Source: Candidatus Komeilibacteria bacterium (GTDB lineage Bacteria; Patescibacteriota; Patescibacteriia; UBA1558; 2-01-FULL-52-15). Taken from it: DNA of 28,410 bases. The stretch is from assembly GCA_016204595.1 (NCBI GenBank), contig JACQKJ010000066.1, positions 1 through 28,410 on the forward strand, given 5' to 3'. The position numbers and the translations under genes were made by a program. The notes under the pieces were generated by a model that saw nothing but the letters and a program-made list of their open reading frames with translations, ran no database searches and was not told where the DNA came from. Positions 4,227-28,410 of the stretch are shown in pieces. Numbering within the stretch: the stretch's first letter is position 1; each line of letters starts with the position of its first letter.

Positions 4227-4265
4227 ACCCATGTACCAGTCGCCCCGTGGGCGACGGTACAGGGT
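4227..4265. terminator. long interrupted hairpin between convergent pilC and pilX-like genes
   Basis: ACCC-a-TGTACC-a-GTCGCCC-cgt-GGGCGAC-GGTACA-GGGT, directly after the stop codon at 4267. REP-like or bidirectional terminator. Confidence 0.65.
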
Positions 4266-25419: not shown

Positions 25420-26436
25420 TTAAATTCGTAGTGACCGCCGTACCGAACGGGCTTTTTCATAGAATCCATACCAGAGTGGATTGTATATGAAATCGAAGGC
25501 GCCGGGACTTTCAACGACGCGGCCGCTGAATCCTTGTTTGAAACGACTTACGTTCGCAAGAGACGGTTTTGATCCGTCGCTTGGCTCGTATCCCCAGAAG
25601 TCATAGTATCCCAGTTTGAGCTCGTATGCTTTTTGCATCGCGTTCCATTGGAGCAGATGCGGAGCCATGAGTTCGCGGTTGCTGTAGTCGAAACCGCCGT
25701 GCACATAGGTCATGGTCGGATACTGGACGATATACAGATTGGCAGCGATGGTTTTTCCCTGGTAGACCGCGTAATTCATATATACTGTGTCCTTTTTCTC
25801 ATCCGCTTTCAGAAGCAGCTTATAATATCGCGCGTCATGCGATCTGATCCGGTTCCTGCGTTTTGATTTGCCGAGCATGGAAAGAAAGTGTTTCAGATCC
25901 GCTTCCTCTTGTGACCACAGAACCGTCACGCCTTTTTTTTCTGCGAGGCGTATGTTATAGCGGGTTTTCTCCTTGAAGCTCGCGAAGAGCTCATCGACCG
26001 GGACATCAAGCGAACGGTAGATCGTCGCTTTGGGCTGTATCGCGACCGAGGGCTTCATGGGTATGTTCGTGAGTTCGGGAAGCGTGATGTTCGGTTCGAT
26101 CCGACAGAAGAGTTCCTCCCGCCTACGCGTCGCGACCGTAACATCGCGGATCTGGCTGAGGATAAGCTCCAGAGCCTCCTTACGCTCCTCGGGGTCCAGT
26201 GTCGGGAGAAAGATAGGCCCCTTCGGGGCATAGAGGTAACTTTTTCCGAAAGATAGTTTCGTGGTGTACAGCAGGCAGTGCGCGACCAGCCGCTGCCCGT
26301 CATAGACGTTGAGCTGCCAATTCTTTTTTTTCTGCAGGTTCAAAAAACGTTTCCAAAATCTGCTTTGCAAAAAAGAGCCCAGAGGGAACTGCTCCAGGAA
26401 CTGATCGTAGTTATGTGCGTTGAGCGAGACGTCCAT
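25420..26436 (-). CDS. femX: peptidoglycan bridge formation glycyltransferase FemA/FemB/FemX family
   Basis: GSFLQS.FW, YLYAPKGP, KTRYNIRLAEKKGV, APHLLQW.AM..A, YYDFWG and FKQGFSG motifs. The start overlaps the ruvA stop (TAATG). Confidence 0.9.
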   Translation of the reverse strand: MDVSLNAHNYDQFLEQFPLGSFLQSRFWKRFLNLQKKKNWQLNVYDGQRLVAHCLLYTTKLSFGKSYLYAPKGPIFLPTLDPEERKEALELILSQIRDVTVATRRREELFCRIEPNITLPELTNIPMKPSVAIQPKATIYRSLDVPVDELFASFKEKTRYNIRLAEKKGVTVLWSQEEADLKHFLSMLGKSKRRNRIRSHDARYYKLLLKADEKKDTVYMNYAVYQGKTIAANLYIVQYPTMTYVHGGFDYSNRELMAPHLLQWNAMQKAYELKLGYYDFWGYEPSDGSKPSLANVSRFKQGFSGRVVESPGAFDFIYNPLWYGFYEKARSVRRSLRI

Positions 26437-27026
26437 TATGCTGGTTTTCCGCCGCTAAGGATTTTTAACGCCTCCTTGATCTTGTCCGATAGTTCTTTTG
26501 TTTCCGGAGGTATCTGCCGGAGCGCTTTCCTGACCTCCCCTTCTTTATAGCCGAGCGATTGTAATGCCTCCATGAGCTGAATGTTCTCAGTGATGCTCAT
26601 GGTCGCTGTTTCTTCCTGCGCGCTGACGGTTATCTTTTCCTTCAATTCAACGATGATACGCTCCGCGGTCTTTTTGCCGATCGACGTCACTTTCTGCAGC
26701 AGGGCCGGGTCGCCGTGGATGATCGCTTTTTTGATGTCAGCGAGCGGGGCTACTGAGAGCACGCCAAGGGCGATGCGGGGGCCCACACCCGAAATGGTAA
26801 TGAGTTTCTCGAAGAAATCAAGCTCGTCAATGTTCGGGAATCCGTAGAGTTCGATCGTGTCTTCTTTGACGTTCGTATAGACGAAAAACGACACGTCCCC
26901 GGACGGATTGAGCTGTTCCAGCAGCTGCTGCGTCACATAGATCCGGTATCCGGTGTTCTCGCCCACAACAAGAATGATATATCTGTCCTTCTTTGCCAGA
27001 ACTGAACCGCGTAAAAAGTTGAGCAT
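26436..27026 (-). CDS. ruvA: Holliday junction branch migration protein RuvA
   Basis: VKEDTIELYGF, LITISGVGPRIAL, IGKKTAERIIVELKEK, EALQSLGY. Confidence 0.97.
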   Translation of the reverse strand: MLNFLRGSVLAKKDRYIILVVGENTGYRIYVTQQLLEQLNPSGDVSFFVYTNVKEDTIELYGFPNIDELDFFEKLITISGVGPRIALGVLSVAPLADIKKAIIHGDPALLQKVTSIGKKTAERIIVELKEKITVSAQEETATMSITENIQLMEALQSLGYKEGEVRKALRQIPPETKELSDKIKEALKILSGGKPA

Positions 27027-27087
27027 TGTAAGGCTATTTAAGCACTAGTTGGTTAAAAAATCAACAAAAAAAAGCCGTCCGATCTCG

Positions 27088-27116
27088 TTGACTATTGGGG
27101 CATGCAAGATTAGTAT
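27088..27116 (+). promoter_or_regulatory. sigma70 promoter upstream of uvrB region
   Basis: TTGACT-17 nt-TAGTAT. Predicted TSS ~27123, about 6 nt before the uORF ATG at 27129. Confidence 0.55.
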
Positions 27117-27128
27117 TACACAACTACT

Positions 27129-27227
27129 ATGCCGGCATCGCCATTTACTTTAGTTTCAAAATTTAAACCCACGGGAGACCCCGTACTATTCGCAGTGCCT
27201 CAAGTACGGGGCAGGCCAACCGTATGA
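27129..27227 (+). pseudogene. 32-aa uORF encoding a second, disrupted UvrB N-terminus (MPASPFTLVSKFKPTGD + element-derived tail)
   Basis: FTLVSKFKPTGD aligns with FQLISKFKPAGD of the downstream uvrB. It is interrupted right after the Asp codon by a palindrome and stops 4 nt before the uvrB ATG. Confidence 0.75.
27179..27216. repeat. REP-like palindrome inserted in the uvrB-like uORF
   Basis: CCCCGTACT-15 nt-AGTACGGGG-CAGGC (9-bp perfect stem). Confidence 0.7.
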
Positions 27228-27231
27228 ATAC

Positions 27232-28410
27232 ATGACACACGATACTTTTCAGCTCATTTCGAAATTTAAACCTGCTGGTGATCAAGGACAGGCGATCCGG
27301 AAATTGGCCTCGGGTATTTCGCAGGGTTTCGAAAAACAGACCTTGAAGGGCGTGACCGGGTCGGGTAAGACGTTCACCATCGCGAATGTGATCGCGCAAG
27401 CCGGAAGACCGACGCTTTTGATATCGCACAACAAAACACTAGCGGCGCAGCTTGCGTCCGAGCTGCAGGATTTTTTTCCGAAGAATGCGGTGCACTATTT
27501 CGTATCGTACTACGATTACTACCAGCCTGAAGCGTACATCCCTACGACCGACACGCATATCGACAAGGAAACGCAAATTAACGAAGAGATAGACCGGCTC
27601 CGGCACGCGGCAACGCAGGCTGTGCTTACGCGGCGCGATGTCATCGTGGTCGCTTCGGTATCGTGCATCTATGGCCTGGGTTCACCGGTCGAGTATGCCA
27701 AGGTGACCATCGATCTGGAGAAGGGAAAGGAATATTCGATGCAGCAGTTGCTCAAACGTTTGCATCACGTGCAGTATGAACGCAATGATGTGAGCTTGGT
27801 GCGCGGCACGTACAGCGTGAAAGGTGAAGTGATGGAGATATTCCCTTCAGGAGAACTGGACATCTTTTACCGGCTCGAGTTCGATCATGCCCACCTTCAT
27901 CGCATCAAACGCGTGCAGTATCTGACCCGCGACGTGCTCGACGCGGACGTGGAACGGCTATCGTTGTTCCCCGCGAAGCATTATGTCGCTCCAGAGGAGA
28001 ATATGCCGGATATCATCGAACAGATCCGCAAGGACCTTGCCGAGCGAATTACCGTATTCAAAAAGGAAAACAAGCTTATCGAGGCGCAGCGTATCGAGGA
28101 GCGCGTGAATTTCGATCTGGAGATGATCCAGACCATGGGGTACTGTAGTGGTATCGAGAACTATTCGCGGTATTTCGACCGCCGACATGAAGGCGAGCCG
28201 CCGGCAACCTTGCTCGAGTATTTTCCAAAAGATTTTCTGCTGGTGGTCGACGAATCGCACATGACCTTGCCGCAGATCCGGGGCATGTACCACGGTGATC
28301 GGTCACGCAAGGAAGTGCTGGTCGACTATGGCTGGCGGTTGCCGGCGGCCATTGATAACAGGCCTCTCAACTGGGACGAATTCCTGGCGCGCACCGGTGT
28401 TACGTTATAC
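27232..28410 (+). CDS. uvrB: excinuclease ABC subunit UvrB (partial, runs off window end)
   Basis: MTHDTFQLISKFKPAGDQGQAI, Walker A GVTGSGKTFT, HNKTLAAQL, FVSYYDYYQPEAY, VASVSCIYGLGSP, GIENYSR, DESH. Not in the ORF track because there is no stop within the window. Confidence 0.98.
   Translation, partial: MTHDTFQLISKFKPAGDQGQAIRKLASGISQGFEKQTLKGVTGSGKTFTIANVIAQAGRPTLLISHNKTLAAQLASELQDFFPKNAVHYFVSYYDYYQPEAYIPTTDTHIDKETQINEEIDRLRHAATQAVLTRRDVIVVASVSCIYGLGSPVEYAKVTIDLEKGKEYSMQQLLKRLHHVQYERNDVSLVRGTYSVKGEVMEIFPSGELDIFYRLEFDHAHLHRIKRVQYLTRDVLDADVERLSLFPAKHYVAPEENMPDIIEQIRKDLAERITVFKKENKLIEAQRIEERVNFDLEMIQTMGYCSGIENYSRYFDRRHEGEPPATLLEYFPKDFLLVVDESHMTLPQIRGMYHGDRSRKEVLVDYGWRLPAAIDNRPLNWDEFLARTGVTLY

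Follow-up and report, generated by a model that had tools for sequence, protein, structure and literature searches.

The window analysed here is a stretch of 28,410 nucleotides from a Candidatus Komeilibacteria bacterium, an ultra-small groundwater organism. It ends within uvrB, a DNA-repair gene whose first 393 codons (27232..28410, + strand) are included and which continues beyond the window; the gene was assigned from the ORF list and from the 76% identity of its product to Komeilibacteria UvrB proteins with the full UvrB Pfam architecture. The divergent upstream neighbour is ruvA (26436..27026, - strand), identified in the ORF list and by the Pfam domains RuvA_N, HHH_5 and RuvA_C on its orthologues in L122-L130. 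The synteny, with femAB and ruvA pointing away from uvrB, was kept in all relatives, and at all loci examined ruvA was found directly upstream and uvrB-truB downstream.

A sigma-70-type, promoter-like site (TTGACT-17-TAGTAT) was predicted at 27088..27116 (+ strand). It is followed by an upstream open reading frame (uORF) of 32 codons (27129..27227, + strand, from the ORF list), which consists of a first copy of the uvrB start (c1) and a tail encoded by a hairpin. The ATG of c1 begins 13 nt past the -10 hexamer, with 12 nt between them, and the mRNA leader should therefore be very short or missing. The same kind of promoter was located 8-14 nt ahead of the uvrB or c1 ATG in the relatives, and these promoter positions predict that uvrB mRNAs throughout the family have little leader, if any. 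The c1 segment (27129..27179, + strand) comprises 17 codons, MPASPFTLVSKFKPTGD, and is regarded as the displaced native start of uvrB, since it forms the N-terminus in the alleles that lack the insert described below. The hairpin (27179..27211, + strand) has a 9-bp stem, CCCCGTACT/AGTACGGGG, and a 15-nt loop, and its first C occupies the third position of the c1 Asp codon. The first-pass annotation had described a 32-nt palindrome placed exactly after that codon; a hairpin is indeed located there, but it is an inverted repeat with a long loop and starts inside the Asp codon. The linker between the hairpin and the uvrB ATG (27212..27231, + strand), as delimited by alignments, starts with CAGGCC, the conserved 3' flank of the element in these alignments, and holds the TGA stop of the uORF, 4 nt ahead of the uvrB ATG (27232). 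The gene itself opens with c2 (27232..27282, + strand), 17 codons, MTHDTFQLISKFKPAGD, which would be a replacement start borne by the insert. Hairpin, linker (~20 nt) and second start codon with its 17 codons amount to a block of 103 nt. The promoter, the uORF and both copies were thus confirmed where they had first been placed.

The duplicated start of uvrB

The cores of c1 (PFTLVSKFKPTGD, 27141-27179) and c2 (TFQLISKFKPAGD, 27244-27282) lie 103 nt apart. Identities at the first, second and third codon positions were found in 8, 12 and 5 of the 13 codons, respectively, which indicates that the divergence between both copies is mainly synonymous. The whole genome (723 kb) yields 1.44 million 13-mers in six frames, and among them c1 was the best non-self match to c2, with a BLOSUM62 score of 50 (next best, 34; mean, -14; sd, 7.4). 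The match is far beyond chance, which settles the earlier doubt about the 12 matching codons. The c1 copy always ends in GAC and c2 in GAT. Similarity to uvrB may extend past the hairpin in another frame (27209-27223, GQANR vs GQAIR), an extension that is ambiguous because GGGGCAGGC is also the conserved 3' flank of the hairpin at loci without c1.

Between deep lineages, c1 showed pS values of 0.5-0.9 against pN values of 0.15-0.29 (pN/pS about 0.2-0.3); in simulations this constraint was significant (P = 1.5e-4 and P < 5e-5) and its level equalled that of c2. Across hairpin and linker pS was about equal to pN (~0.2), so the hairpin-encoded half of the uORF carries no peptide-level constraint, and the base of the stem was invariant in five lineages, with one covarying pair. 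As judged from these substitution patterns, protein-level selection acts on c1 and c2, as had been proposed for both copies, and nucleotide-level selection acts on the hairpin.

Filled and empty alleles

Near-identical strains without the block were found in two populations, and in these empty alleles c1 is the true N-terminus of UvrB. In the window, the presence/absence segment measures 114 nt (27176..27289, + strand), and the block-less allele has 11 nt, TGATCAACCGG, in its place. The groundwater study that yielded the window also has contigs in which 27175 is linked to 27290 by these 11 nt, giving ...KPTGDQPEAIR, in runs X2 (depth 3.4) and X3 (depth 4.3), this empty allele of the window's genome (G000) being represented by short Logan contigs (157 nt, with sides of 56 and 30 nt) and not by raw reads. 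The filled form was present in runs X1 and X2. An independent X2 contig covers 27146-27319, spans the junction and has zero differences from the window, and the same layout was assembled independently in three other genomes, which disposes of a chimeric assembly as the source of the structure. In the second population, L122 and L123 match G001 at 100% of positions across ~1.4 kb of upstream sequence and almost completely on the downstream side, and the 104-nt block is missing from them. Their UvrB starts with MPDVFKLQSKFRPTGD followed by QPQAI, and the former is the c1 of G001; c1 is also the real N-terminus in P0010 and P0013 of this population. The use of c1 as N-terminus by the empty alleles can explain its coding-like evolution.

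Homology at the junctions of the block was limited to 2 nt in G000 and 9 nt in G001, and no identical core bounds it. Filled and empty alleles also differ in the two codons that follow Gly-Asp-Gln. The window has the non-consensus GGA CAG (Gly-Gln; 27286..27291, + strand), which resembles the hairpin's own 3' flank, vs CCG GAG (Pro-Glu) in the block-less allele, and G001 has Pro-Val vs Pro-Gln in L122/L123. In both populations the difference amounts to a 4-nt patch, which would fit co-conversion or immunity at a cleavage site. The Gly-Asp codons of the empty alleles match those of c2, not c1, again in both populations; this looks more like a deletion by recombination between c1 and c2 than like an allele that was never invaded. 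Such a deletion leaves the extra 4-nt patch unexplained. Mosaics of SNPs were found just downstream of the block in G001, L122 and L123, pointing to active recombination at the uvrB locus.

The c1-hairpin-c2 layout was found in three Komeilibacteria genera, and both N-terminal variants are carried by relatives. This distribution, together with the segregation of the structure as a presence/absence allele, gives no support to the earlier proposal of a private event in which the gene was rescued after being hit by a mini-repeat. Four filled alleles were seen. In G008, L125 and G001, as in the window (G000), promoter, c1, hairpin, a stop adjoining the ATG and c2 follow one another, with c1 and c2 spaced by 103-104 nt; the uORF stop is at the same 4 nt from the ATG in G008 and L125 and overlaps it (ATGA) in G001. 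L125 keeps the block, and its c1 has no ATG, GTG or TTG. L130 has promoter, hairpin and uvrB, with c1 wholly absent. N-termini of the c2 type (Phe at residue 6) occur alone in L009, L011, L124, L127 and L129. A search of metagenome contigs with a UvrB fragment found the second N-terminal motif in 0 of 80 loci; its matches were relatives with up to 62% identity, dominated by the universal YYDYYQPE motif, and it serves as a negative control only. A frameshift from the uORF into the uvrB frame was rejected, since the upstream frame is not conserved open and has stops in G001 and L125.

Of the two copies, c1 is similar to outgroup-type starts and c2 to those of genus g4. In the UvrB tree about 11 lineages radiate as a star, which gives no order for gain, loss or direction of the block. 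The nucleotide divergence of the block between genera was about as high as that of the host gene, which points to old vertical inheritance and argues against recent spread between genera.

A role of the uORF as leader peptide is possible, and none of the above requires it; the idea is weakened by the alleles without a c1 start codon (L125) or without c1 (L130) and by the unconstrained uORF tail. Translational coupling of the uORF to uvrB is likewise possible. An attenuator was discarded: the uvrB hairpin has no T-run, the folding stability of the whole leader is not unusual (z = -0.07), no RNA family was found over the leader in Rfam at E values up to 10, and L125 and L130 lack the c1 start and c1, respectively.

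The hairpin and its relatives at other loci

Hairpins of the form CCCCG..CGGGG are dispersed in the genome, 22 being found in G000 vs 3 in the reversed control; the palindrome is therefore a member of a repeat family, the mini-repeat that the first-pass annotation had supposed. Duplicated flanks were detected in just 2 of the 21 testable hairpins in G000, those at uvrB and at a tRNA-Asn gene (z = 6.5-7.4 and 4.2-4.3). These are also the two copies of the CCCCGTACT stem in that genome, both flanked by gene fragments. They have in common the whole stem and the flanks AGA(A)C..C, and their loops are unrelated (15 vs 19 nt). Hence, the possibility that all CCCCG..CGGGG hairpins mark gene-fragment duplications was rejected, only these two qualifying in G000, and in G001 and G007 most CCCG[CT]AC hairpins are simple repeats between genes, with no gene fragment beside them. 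G007 holds a related copy with the same GGGGCAGGC 3' flank, which is not the leftover of a lost uvrB locus, since neither ruvA, femAB nor uvrB is located nearby. An operator for a dimeric repressor was also rejected, on account of the different loop lengths and of the copy at a tRNA gene. Around the uvrB hairpin, no larger repeat unit emerged when the leader was compared with the genome by sensitive BLAST, and the sequence downstream of uvrB in G008, G001 and L125 contained no lone inverted arm.

The tRNA-Asn locus (C44) has the same design as uvrB. The hairpin lies there between the 5' half of a tRNA and an intact, diverged tRNA-Asn, an arrangement kept in G008, where the native 3' half follows an inverted arm and can pair perfectly, through its acceptor strand, with the fragment upstream. 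The two tRNA-Asn copies show the same split between outgroup-type and g4-type as c1 and c2. With E values up to 10, Rfam returned no family over the tRNA-Asn insert except tRNA itself.

At two further loci a nuclease gene accompanies the hairpin elements. In contig C37 of G000, a pilin start fragment is followed by an arm, a GIY-YIG gene, a second arm and the resumed pilin gene. In G007, a 28-nt fragment of tRNA-Lys is followed by a CCCCG hairpin, a GIY-YIG gene and the intact tRNA, and a uvrB-type hairpin with the GGGGCAGGC flank lies ~200 nt upstream. The nucleases of these sister cassettes are proteins of 84-100 aa of the UPF0213 type (PDB 1ZG2 match); the local GIY-YIG proteins match Pfam PF01541 and the UPF0213 structures 1ZG2 and 1YWL. 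In G000, UPF0213 nucleases are encoded at C37:8000-8250 and C19:26310-26561. Small GIY-YIG genes numbered 6 to 19 per genome in G001, G003, G007 and G008, and 2 in G009. No nuclease gene, ORF or remnant was found in the uvrB block of the four filled alleles, and none of the uvrB loci seen had a full nuclease-bearing cassette. Since such cassettes occur at other loci only, the uvrB block can be at most a nuclease-less derivative.

Origin of the block

A close parallel is provided by the mORFs of fungal mitochondria, in which a synonymously diverged terminus is inserted and the native one displaced, as in the hybrid atp6, atp9, cox2 and nad3 genes of Glomus and Allomyces (PMC3630166). As in the uvrB block, the insert lies within a conserved gene, the replacement end is synonymously diverged and encodes a near-identical protein, the native end is displaced, and presence or absence varies among close relatives; at uvrB, filled and empty alleles share identical or nearly identical flanks. 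The end that mORFs replace is the 3' one, and they carry a gene for a LAGLIDADG or GIY-YIG enzyme, whereas the block replaces the 5' end and, in its four filled alleles, has no endonuclease gene. It also differs from mORFs in its bacterial host, its length of 103 nt and the conserved hairpin at its upstream edge. Intronless homing by a GIY-YIG enzyme is known from SegB of phage T4, which is associated with the T4 tRNA gene cluster (PMC2330249). Free-standing enzymes of this kind in T-even phages resemble the proposed cassette in spreading without an intron, together with their flanks, by cleavage of the empty allele, in co-conversion and in the neighbourhood of tRNA genes; seg genes sit between genes and are not known to carry a replacement gene end or a terminal hairpin, and the uvrB block, for its part, has no nuclease.

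To recognise their hairpin repeats, Ssn GIY-YIG nucleases rely on the stem and the flanks and not on the loop (PMC11893778). The features of the Ssn/NTS repeats, that is, dispersed hairpins with a conserved stem, oriented flanks and a free loop, were also found here, as were small single-domain GIY-YIG proteins and repeat-gene-repeat layouts (NTS/SRM). The Ssn nucleases are specific for single strands. Their repeats differ from the uvrB hairpin in being intergenic, with no gene-end duplicates reported (PMC11893778). The best solved relatives of the Komeilibacteria nucleases are UPF0213 proteins, and their membership of the Ssn family (cd10448) would be hypothetical. REP/BIME elements with RAYT transposases and MITEs resemble the uvrB hairpin as short dispersed palindromes, often enzyme-less and presumably mobilised in trans, that occur in host mRNAs; unlike the uvrB block, they bring no diverged copy of the end of the interrupted gene.

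Taken with the conserved layout, the empty alleles, the selection patterns and the tRNA-Asn, pilin and tRNA-Lys loci, these comparisons led us to infer that the uvrB block descends from a homing-type cassette that replaces gene starts, and it is probably, at slightly better than even confidence, a nuclease-less relic or a trans-mobilised miniature of such a cassette. The lack of a nuclease in the four filled alleles, the host-like divergence of the block, the c2-like Gly-Asp codons of the empty alleles and the many members of the wider hairpin family in G001 and G007 without gene fragments tell against this reading. The cassette would insert a short distance into a conserved gene and keep that gene functional by supplying the interrupted end anew, in a copy diverged at synonymous sites, and the native end, c1, would be left stranded upstream. 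The first-pass annotation had put forward the same logic of a mobile insert with a replacement 5' fragment and a displaced one, and this part of it fits. Full members would carry a small UPF0213-type GIY-YIG gene, absent at uvrB, beside the hairpin or between its arms. The uvrB block would spread, or would once have spread, by nuclease cleavage of the empty allele and recombinational copying. The c1 copy may be kept intact because empty alleles, in which it is the working N-terminus, keep recombining with filled ones. At present, the ancestral promoter would give an mRNA with little or no leader, ribosomes would read the c1 uORF across the hairpin and terminate 4 nt short of the uvrB ATG, and re-initiation, or else an independent initiation without a Shine-Dalgarno sequence, would give UvrB its c2 N-terminus. 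The further proposal of a mini-cassette that is still alive, cycling in and out at the uvrB start in natural Komeilibacteria populations, mobilised in trans by UPF0213 GIY-YIG nucleases that recognise the hairpin, such cassettes in time overwriting the 5' ends of core genes and entire tRNA genes, is tentative, and we consider it rather doubtful; c2-type starts that stand alone in several genera would in that case be overwritten ones.

An ancient tandem duplication in a Komeilibacteria ancestor, covering ~23 codons at the beginning of uvrB, with a REP-like hairpin landing later in the upstream copy, a uORF maintained for reinitiation and recurrent deletions, is an unlikely origin. The uORF would here feed ribosomes to the Shine-Dalgarno-less start of uvrB, and the hairpin would help deletions between the repeats. 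The position of the uORF stop, 4 nt before the uvrB ATG or overlapping it in 4/4 filled alleles, and the scarcity of leader across the family agree with this, as do the c2-like Gly-Asp codons of the empty alleles, which a c1/c2 crossover predicts, the divergence of the block in step with that of its host and the possible homology after the hairpin. Two independent coincidences are needed, though, because at both genome copies the hairpin lies between a 5' gene fragment and an intact gene, and the native tRNA-Asn gene is split, with its 3' half downstream, as results from insertion and not from tandem duplication. Coupling selects for an open frame and not for a UvrB-like peptide, yet c1 is constrained at the protein level. 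Neither the L125 allele without a c1 start codon nor the L130 allele without c1 is expected from a duplication kept for reinitiation, and in both populations the 4-nt patch separates the empty alleles from the product of a simple deletion.

Recombination alone, without a nuclease, might have replaced the 5' end of uvrB by that of a relative with a hairpin leader, the donor leader and start being stacked behind the recipient start through homology within uvrB at the right end and illegitimate joining to the base of the hairpin at the left end. L130 has the layout proposed for the donor, the SNP mosaics attest to recombination, and the outgroup-like and g4-like characters are distributed between c1 and c2, and likewise between the two tRNA-Asn copies, as a xenologous replacement would have them. 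We regard this as quite unlikely, since three genera share a join at exactly the same codon, behind Gly-Asp, and a second locus again has it at the base of the hairpin, which is unlike one-off joins, and since the nuclease-bearing cassettes of identical design and the long persistence of both alleles are left unexplained.

The integrase att scar of the first-pass annotation, a remnant of attL/attR at the 5' end of uvrB from which the element was later deleted, is now largely refuted and very improbable. A duplicated, diverged gene end is the expected leftover of elements that carry an att site, tRNA genes are classical integration targets and tRNA-Asn shares the design, and the logic of a replacement and a displaced fragment is common to both. 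Such elements nevertheless depend on a recombinase and on a core that is identical in both copies, it is mostly the 3' end that they replace, and the whole element separates the copies. No integrase or element gene was found at or near the locus in any genome, ruvA being directly upstream, the copies keep their spacing of 103-104 nt in four genomes, no identical core bounds the block, and the enzymes at the sister loci are GIY-YIG nucleases, not recombinases.

Recoding by ribosome bypass from GAC to GAT, or removal of the block from the RNA, so that c1 is the N-terminus even in filled alleles, is scarcely credible: the protein-level selection on c1, the start of the hairpin within the Asp codon, as in known bypass elements, and the invariable GAC and GAT ends agree with it, but the DNA-level empty allele already accounts for that selection, no stop codon follows the take-off codon and the gap is ~100 nt, in contrast to programmed bypass in T4 gene 60 and mitochondrial byp, c2 retains its own conserved ATG and is likewise under selection, a start codon on c1 is missing from L125, and no known ribozyme or intron family matches.

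We found no published description of gene-start-replacement cassettes for bacterial protein genes in the literature. If the uvrB block derives from one, core genes of reduced genomes could be invaded a few codons in and not be inactivated, because the invader brings a spare gene start, and otherwise puzzling upstream pseudo-starts and uORFs would be explained. There would also be a route by which foreign versions replace gene 5' ends and tRNA genes, and the small GIY-YIG genes and GC-rich hairpins that abound in Patescibacteria might thereby find a role. A mini-cassette that still moves would be a bacterial counterpart of the mitochondrial mORFs that acts on gene starts and persists as a non-autonomous form of 100 nt, and in the natural population with its two alleles, homing or balanced polymorphism could be put to the test in uncultured bacteria. 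Annotators would have to reckon with a true uvrB start that differs between alleles of one species. As for the protein, the two N-terminal strands of UvrB would be interchangeable, and the two residues after Gly-Asp-Gln would tolerate change.

Two diverged uvrB starts

A sigma-70-type promoter (27088-27116, forward strand), assigned by sequence, precedes a 32-codon uORF (27129-27227, forward strand) whose ATG begins 13 nt past the -10 hexamer and whose stop codon lies 4 nt ahead of the uvrB ATG. As the first-pass annotation had noted, this uORF parallels the uvrB N-terminus: its codons 5-17 (PFTLVSKFKPTGD), at the end of the displaced start c1 (27129-27179), match uvrB codons 5-17 (TFQLISKFKPAGD), at the end of the start of the intact gene, c2 (27232-27282), 103 nt apart, with identities of 8, 12 and 5 out of 13 at the first, second and third codon positions. 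Among the 1.44 million six-frame 13-mers of the whole 723-kb genome, c1 was the best non-self match of c2 (score 50, the next being 34), which excludes resemblance by chance. The same annotation had placed a 32-nt palindrome after the Asp codon; a repeat is present there, but it is a hairpin (27179-27211, forward strand) with 9-bp inverted arms and a 15-nt loop, directly after the c1 Asp codon and overlapping it.

The c1-hairpin-c2 structure is neither private to the window genome nor an artefact. A contig obtained independently, from a public sequencing run on groundwater, covers 27146-27319 with no differences, so that the junction is not a chimeric assembly. The host group is Candidatus Komeilibacteria, and the closest UvrB proteins are 70-77% identical. 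When uvrB was compared across 30 genomes of related species, both N-termini were found in the same layout in two further genera (genomes G008 and G001), and also in L125, a metagenomic relative of G008; the c1-c2 spacing across the four loci is 103, 103, 103 and 104 nt. In L125 the start codon of c1 has been lost, and a further relative's locus, L130, contains the promoter, the hairpin, 12 nt and then uvrB, with c1 absent. None of the 80 more distant uvrB loci contained a second N-terminal motif. The 93% complete relative G007 gave no uvrB match to a UvrB fragment query, while the other members of its family have uvrB; two further genomes of the order sample likewise gave no match. At position 27053 the window carries T and all three runs holding that stretch carry C.

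Alleles lacking the block and selection on c1 and c2

Two database UvrB proteins, P0010 and P0013, have as their N-terminus the exact uORF peptide of G001, fused to the UvrB body. Their contigs (L122 and L123), from other samples, show 100% identity to G001 across ~1.4 kb of upstream sequence and are almost identical downstream; they do not contain a 104-nt block that extends from the third base of the c1 Gly codon to the second base of the c2 Gly codon. Similarly, contigs from two sequencing runs of the window's own groundwater study (X2 and X3) link 27175 to 27290 via 11 letters, in frame, reading ...KPTGDQPEAIRKL. The filled form was found in runs X1 and X2, and X3 contained the empty form only. 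Therefore, near-identical strains in two genera differ by the block, and c1 is the working N-terminus where the block is absent.

In both populations, the two codons past Gly-Asp-Gln encode Gly-Gln or Pro-Val in filled alleles and Pro-Glu or Pro-Gln, the family consensus, in empty ones, the Gly-Asp codons of which agree with c2, not c1. On this basis the empty alleles are not just a fresh deletion of the known filled allele, nor do they obviously represent one that was never invaded. The filled-allele codons past the c2 Gly-Asp-Gln (GGA CAG GCG, GGG CAG GCC, GGG CGG GCG) replicate the 3' flank of the hairpin itself, GGGGCAGGCC (27286-27294 and 27208-27217 in the window; equivalents in L008 and L125), so that linker and c2 are bounded by a short direct repeat (12/13 with one indel in G008). 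In L122 (1600-2100), the first ~500 nt of uvrB are just 88-98% identical to G001 (L010) and L123, strains otherwise identical; this is a recombination mosaic limited to the 5' part of the gene.

Between deep lineages, synonymous differences in c1 are saturated (pS 0.5-0.9) and replacements are few (pN 0.15-0.29). With an equal number of randomly placed substitutions, so few c1 replacements have P = 1.5e-4 (window genome, G000, vs G008) or P < 5e-5 (G000 vs G001). The pattern in c2 is the same, which bears out the earlier proposal that both copies are under protein-level selection. In the hairpin-plus-linker part of the uORF, pS ~ pN ~ 0.2: what is conserved there is the nucleic acid and not a peptide. 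Five lineages share the stem base ACCCCG.A...T.CGGGGCA without change, and one pair covaries. In the recent pair G008/L125 three replacements fall in c1 and none in c2, and L125 has also lost the c1 start codon; small as these numbers are, they hint at a decay of c1 in the absence of empty alleles.

The tRNA-Asn twin and GIY-YIG cassettes

The only other site in the window genome with the uvrB-leader stem (contig C44:10980-11016) lies immediately upstream of tRNA-Asn (split locus: L002 1414-1700 in G000 C44; L134 in G008 C25) and is preceded by a 17-nt tRNA-Asn 5' fragment, 15 nt of which are identical. Another small repeat sits in the D-loop of this fragment. Among 21 testable CCCCG..CGGGG hairpins in this genome, only those at uvrB and tRNA-Asn have duplicated flanks. 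The arrangement is kept, and is clearer, in G008. There the 5' half of a tRNA is complete, comprising acceptor strand and D-arm (with a D-stem compensatory change relative to the intact gene), and is followed by the hairpin, ~25 nt and the intact tRNA-Asn. Next come the hairpin arm in inverted orientation and the 3' half of the split native tRNA; the acceptor strand of this half and the upstream fragment pair perfectly. The locus thus holds an arm-bounded insert with a whole, diverged replacement gene inside a split native tRNA. An older 3' fragment follows, and G008 also has a second spacer copy, which suggests repeated rounds. The 5' fragment is similar to the tRNA-Asn found in genus g6 and the intact copy to that of genus g4, whose tRNA-Asn has neither fragment nor hairpin; in parallel, c1 is like the starts of outgroups, with Phe at residue 5, and c2 like g4 starts, with Phe at residue 6.

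A full cassette was found at tRNA-Lys of G007, where 28 nt from the tRNA 5' end are followed by a CCCCG..CGGGG hairpin, then a GIY-YIG gene and finally the intact tRNA; its junction falls at the same tRNA position as in tRNA-Asn. A hairpin almost identical to that of the uvrB leader, GGGGCAGGC flank included, lies ~200 nt upstream; this site is no remnant of a uvrB locus, as ruvA, femAB and uvrB are all absent nearby. Small GIY-YIG genes of the UPF0213/YhbQ type (PDB 1ZG2, E = 1.7e-11) number three in the window genome and 2 to 19 in relatives. Two of them belong to cassettes directly 3' of tRNA-Gly(GCC) and tRNA-Gly(TCC) (C19:26270-26648 and C5:3800-4200, reverse strand; same type in G008, L165), with the inverted repeat AAATTTTCAGC/GCTGAAAATTT on either side and, after it, a second copy of the tRNA 3' end; at C5 the cassette has decayed and has an in-frame TAG. 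The C37 gene has 15-nt inverted arms on both sides, starting CCCCGTTAGAG and also present in solo hairpins elsewhere, and has a truncated pilin start on one side and the continuation of the pilin on the other. Its reading frame continues into a type IV pilin-like protein (C37:7630-8300, reverse strand; also L161 in G008 and L149 in G001). This fusion, found in three genera, ends ...G|FTL(I/V)E; the nuclease thus stands where the leader peptide of a prepilin would be, and the two might in principle be cleaved apart by prepilin peptidase. In G000 the original start of the pilin (MGIGRKKDHQDRSGFTPLEI*) lies stranded upstream. Many hairpins of the wider family are plain intergenic repeats, and not all mark gene fragments.

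Origin of the uvrB block

The best-supported reading, towards which we lean, is that the block derives from a gene-start replacement cassette and lacks the nuclease. This would account for the diverged copy of the gene start, for insertion at one fixed site in three genera, for a hairpin at the block's upstream edge, for the tRNA-Asn twin, for alleles with and without the block, for the differing codons next to the junction and, via the empty alleles, for selection on c1. It does not explain why block divergence tracks host divergence, why empty alleles share the Gly-Asp codons of c2, or why the codons past the c2 Gly-Asp-Gln imitate the hairpin flank. An old tandem duplication combined with a REP insertion and a coupling uORF seems unlikely beside the cassette reading, and a foreign leader stacked by recombination is somewhat less likely again. 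An integrase scar is highly improbable, and recoding or RNA-level removal slightly more so. Today, the ancestral promoter would transcribe the leader and uvrB, the c1 uORF would be translated through the hairpin, and UvrB would then be made from the c2 ATG by re-initiation or independent initiation.

The closest described system is that of fungal mitochondrial mORFs, which replace 3' ends and carry their own nuclease (PMC3630166); intronless homing by the T4 Seg GIY-YIG nucleases (PMC2330249) comes next. Ssn nucleases with hairpin repeats offer a mechanistic parallel in stem-and-flank recognition (PMC11893778), and GIY-YIG genes within non-intron insertions are on record in CPR rRNA genes (PMC11270868). 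Our literature search found no account of cassettes like these at the starts of bacterial protein genes, and none of a 100-nt form that lacks the nuclease and segregates in populations.

Other repeats were also observed. A separate small dispersed family, TTTTTCGCCCACGGGGCGACC(G/A)CCCT, itself a short hairpin, occurs in the window (4239-4254) and elsewhere in its genome (C44:10907-10939, C49:8690-8722, C79:16579-16602). Between genes, several Komeilibacteria genomes (L296-L308 in G001 and G007; C47:10926-10955 in G000) also contain recurring copies of a nested palindromic unit of ~75 nt, GGGATCCCTCG..GGAGTTTA - CCCCG hairpin - CTCGGGATGA. Inside ruvA (26924-26981), a weak Rfam match to the 'COG2827 RNA' motif (14.7 bits, E = 6.8) is probably due to chance; COG2827 is presumably the small GIY-YIG family of these cassettes, and the motif might merit comparison with their hairpins.
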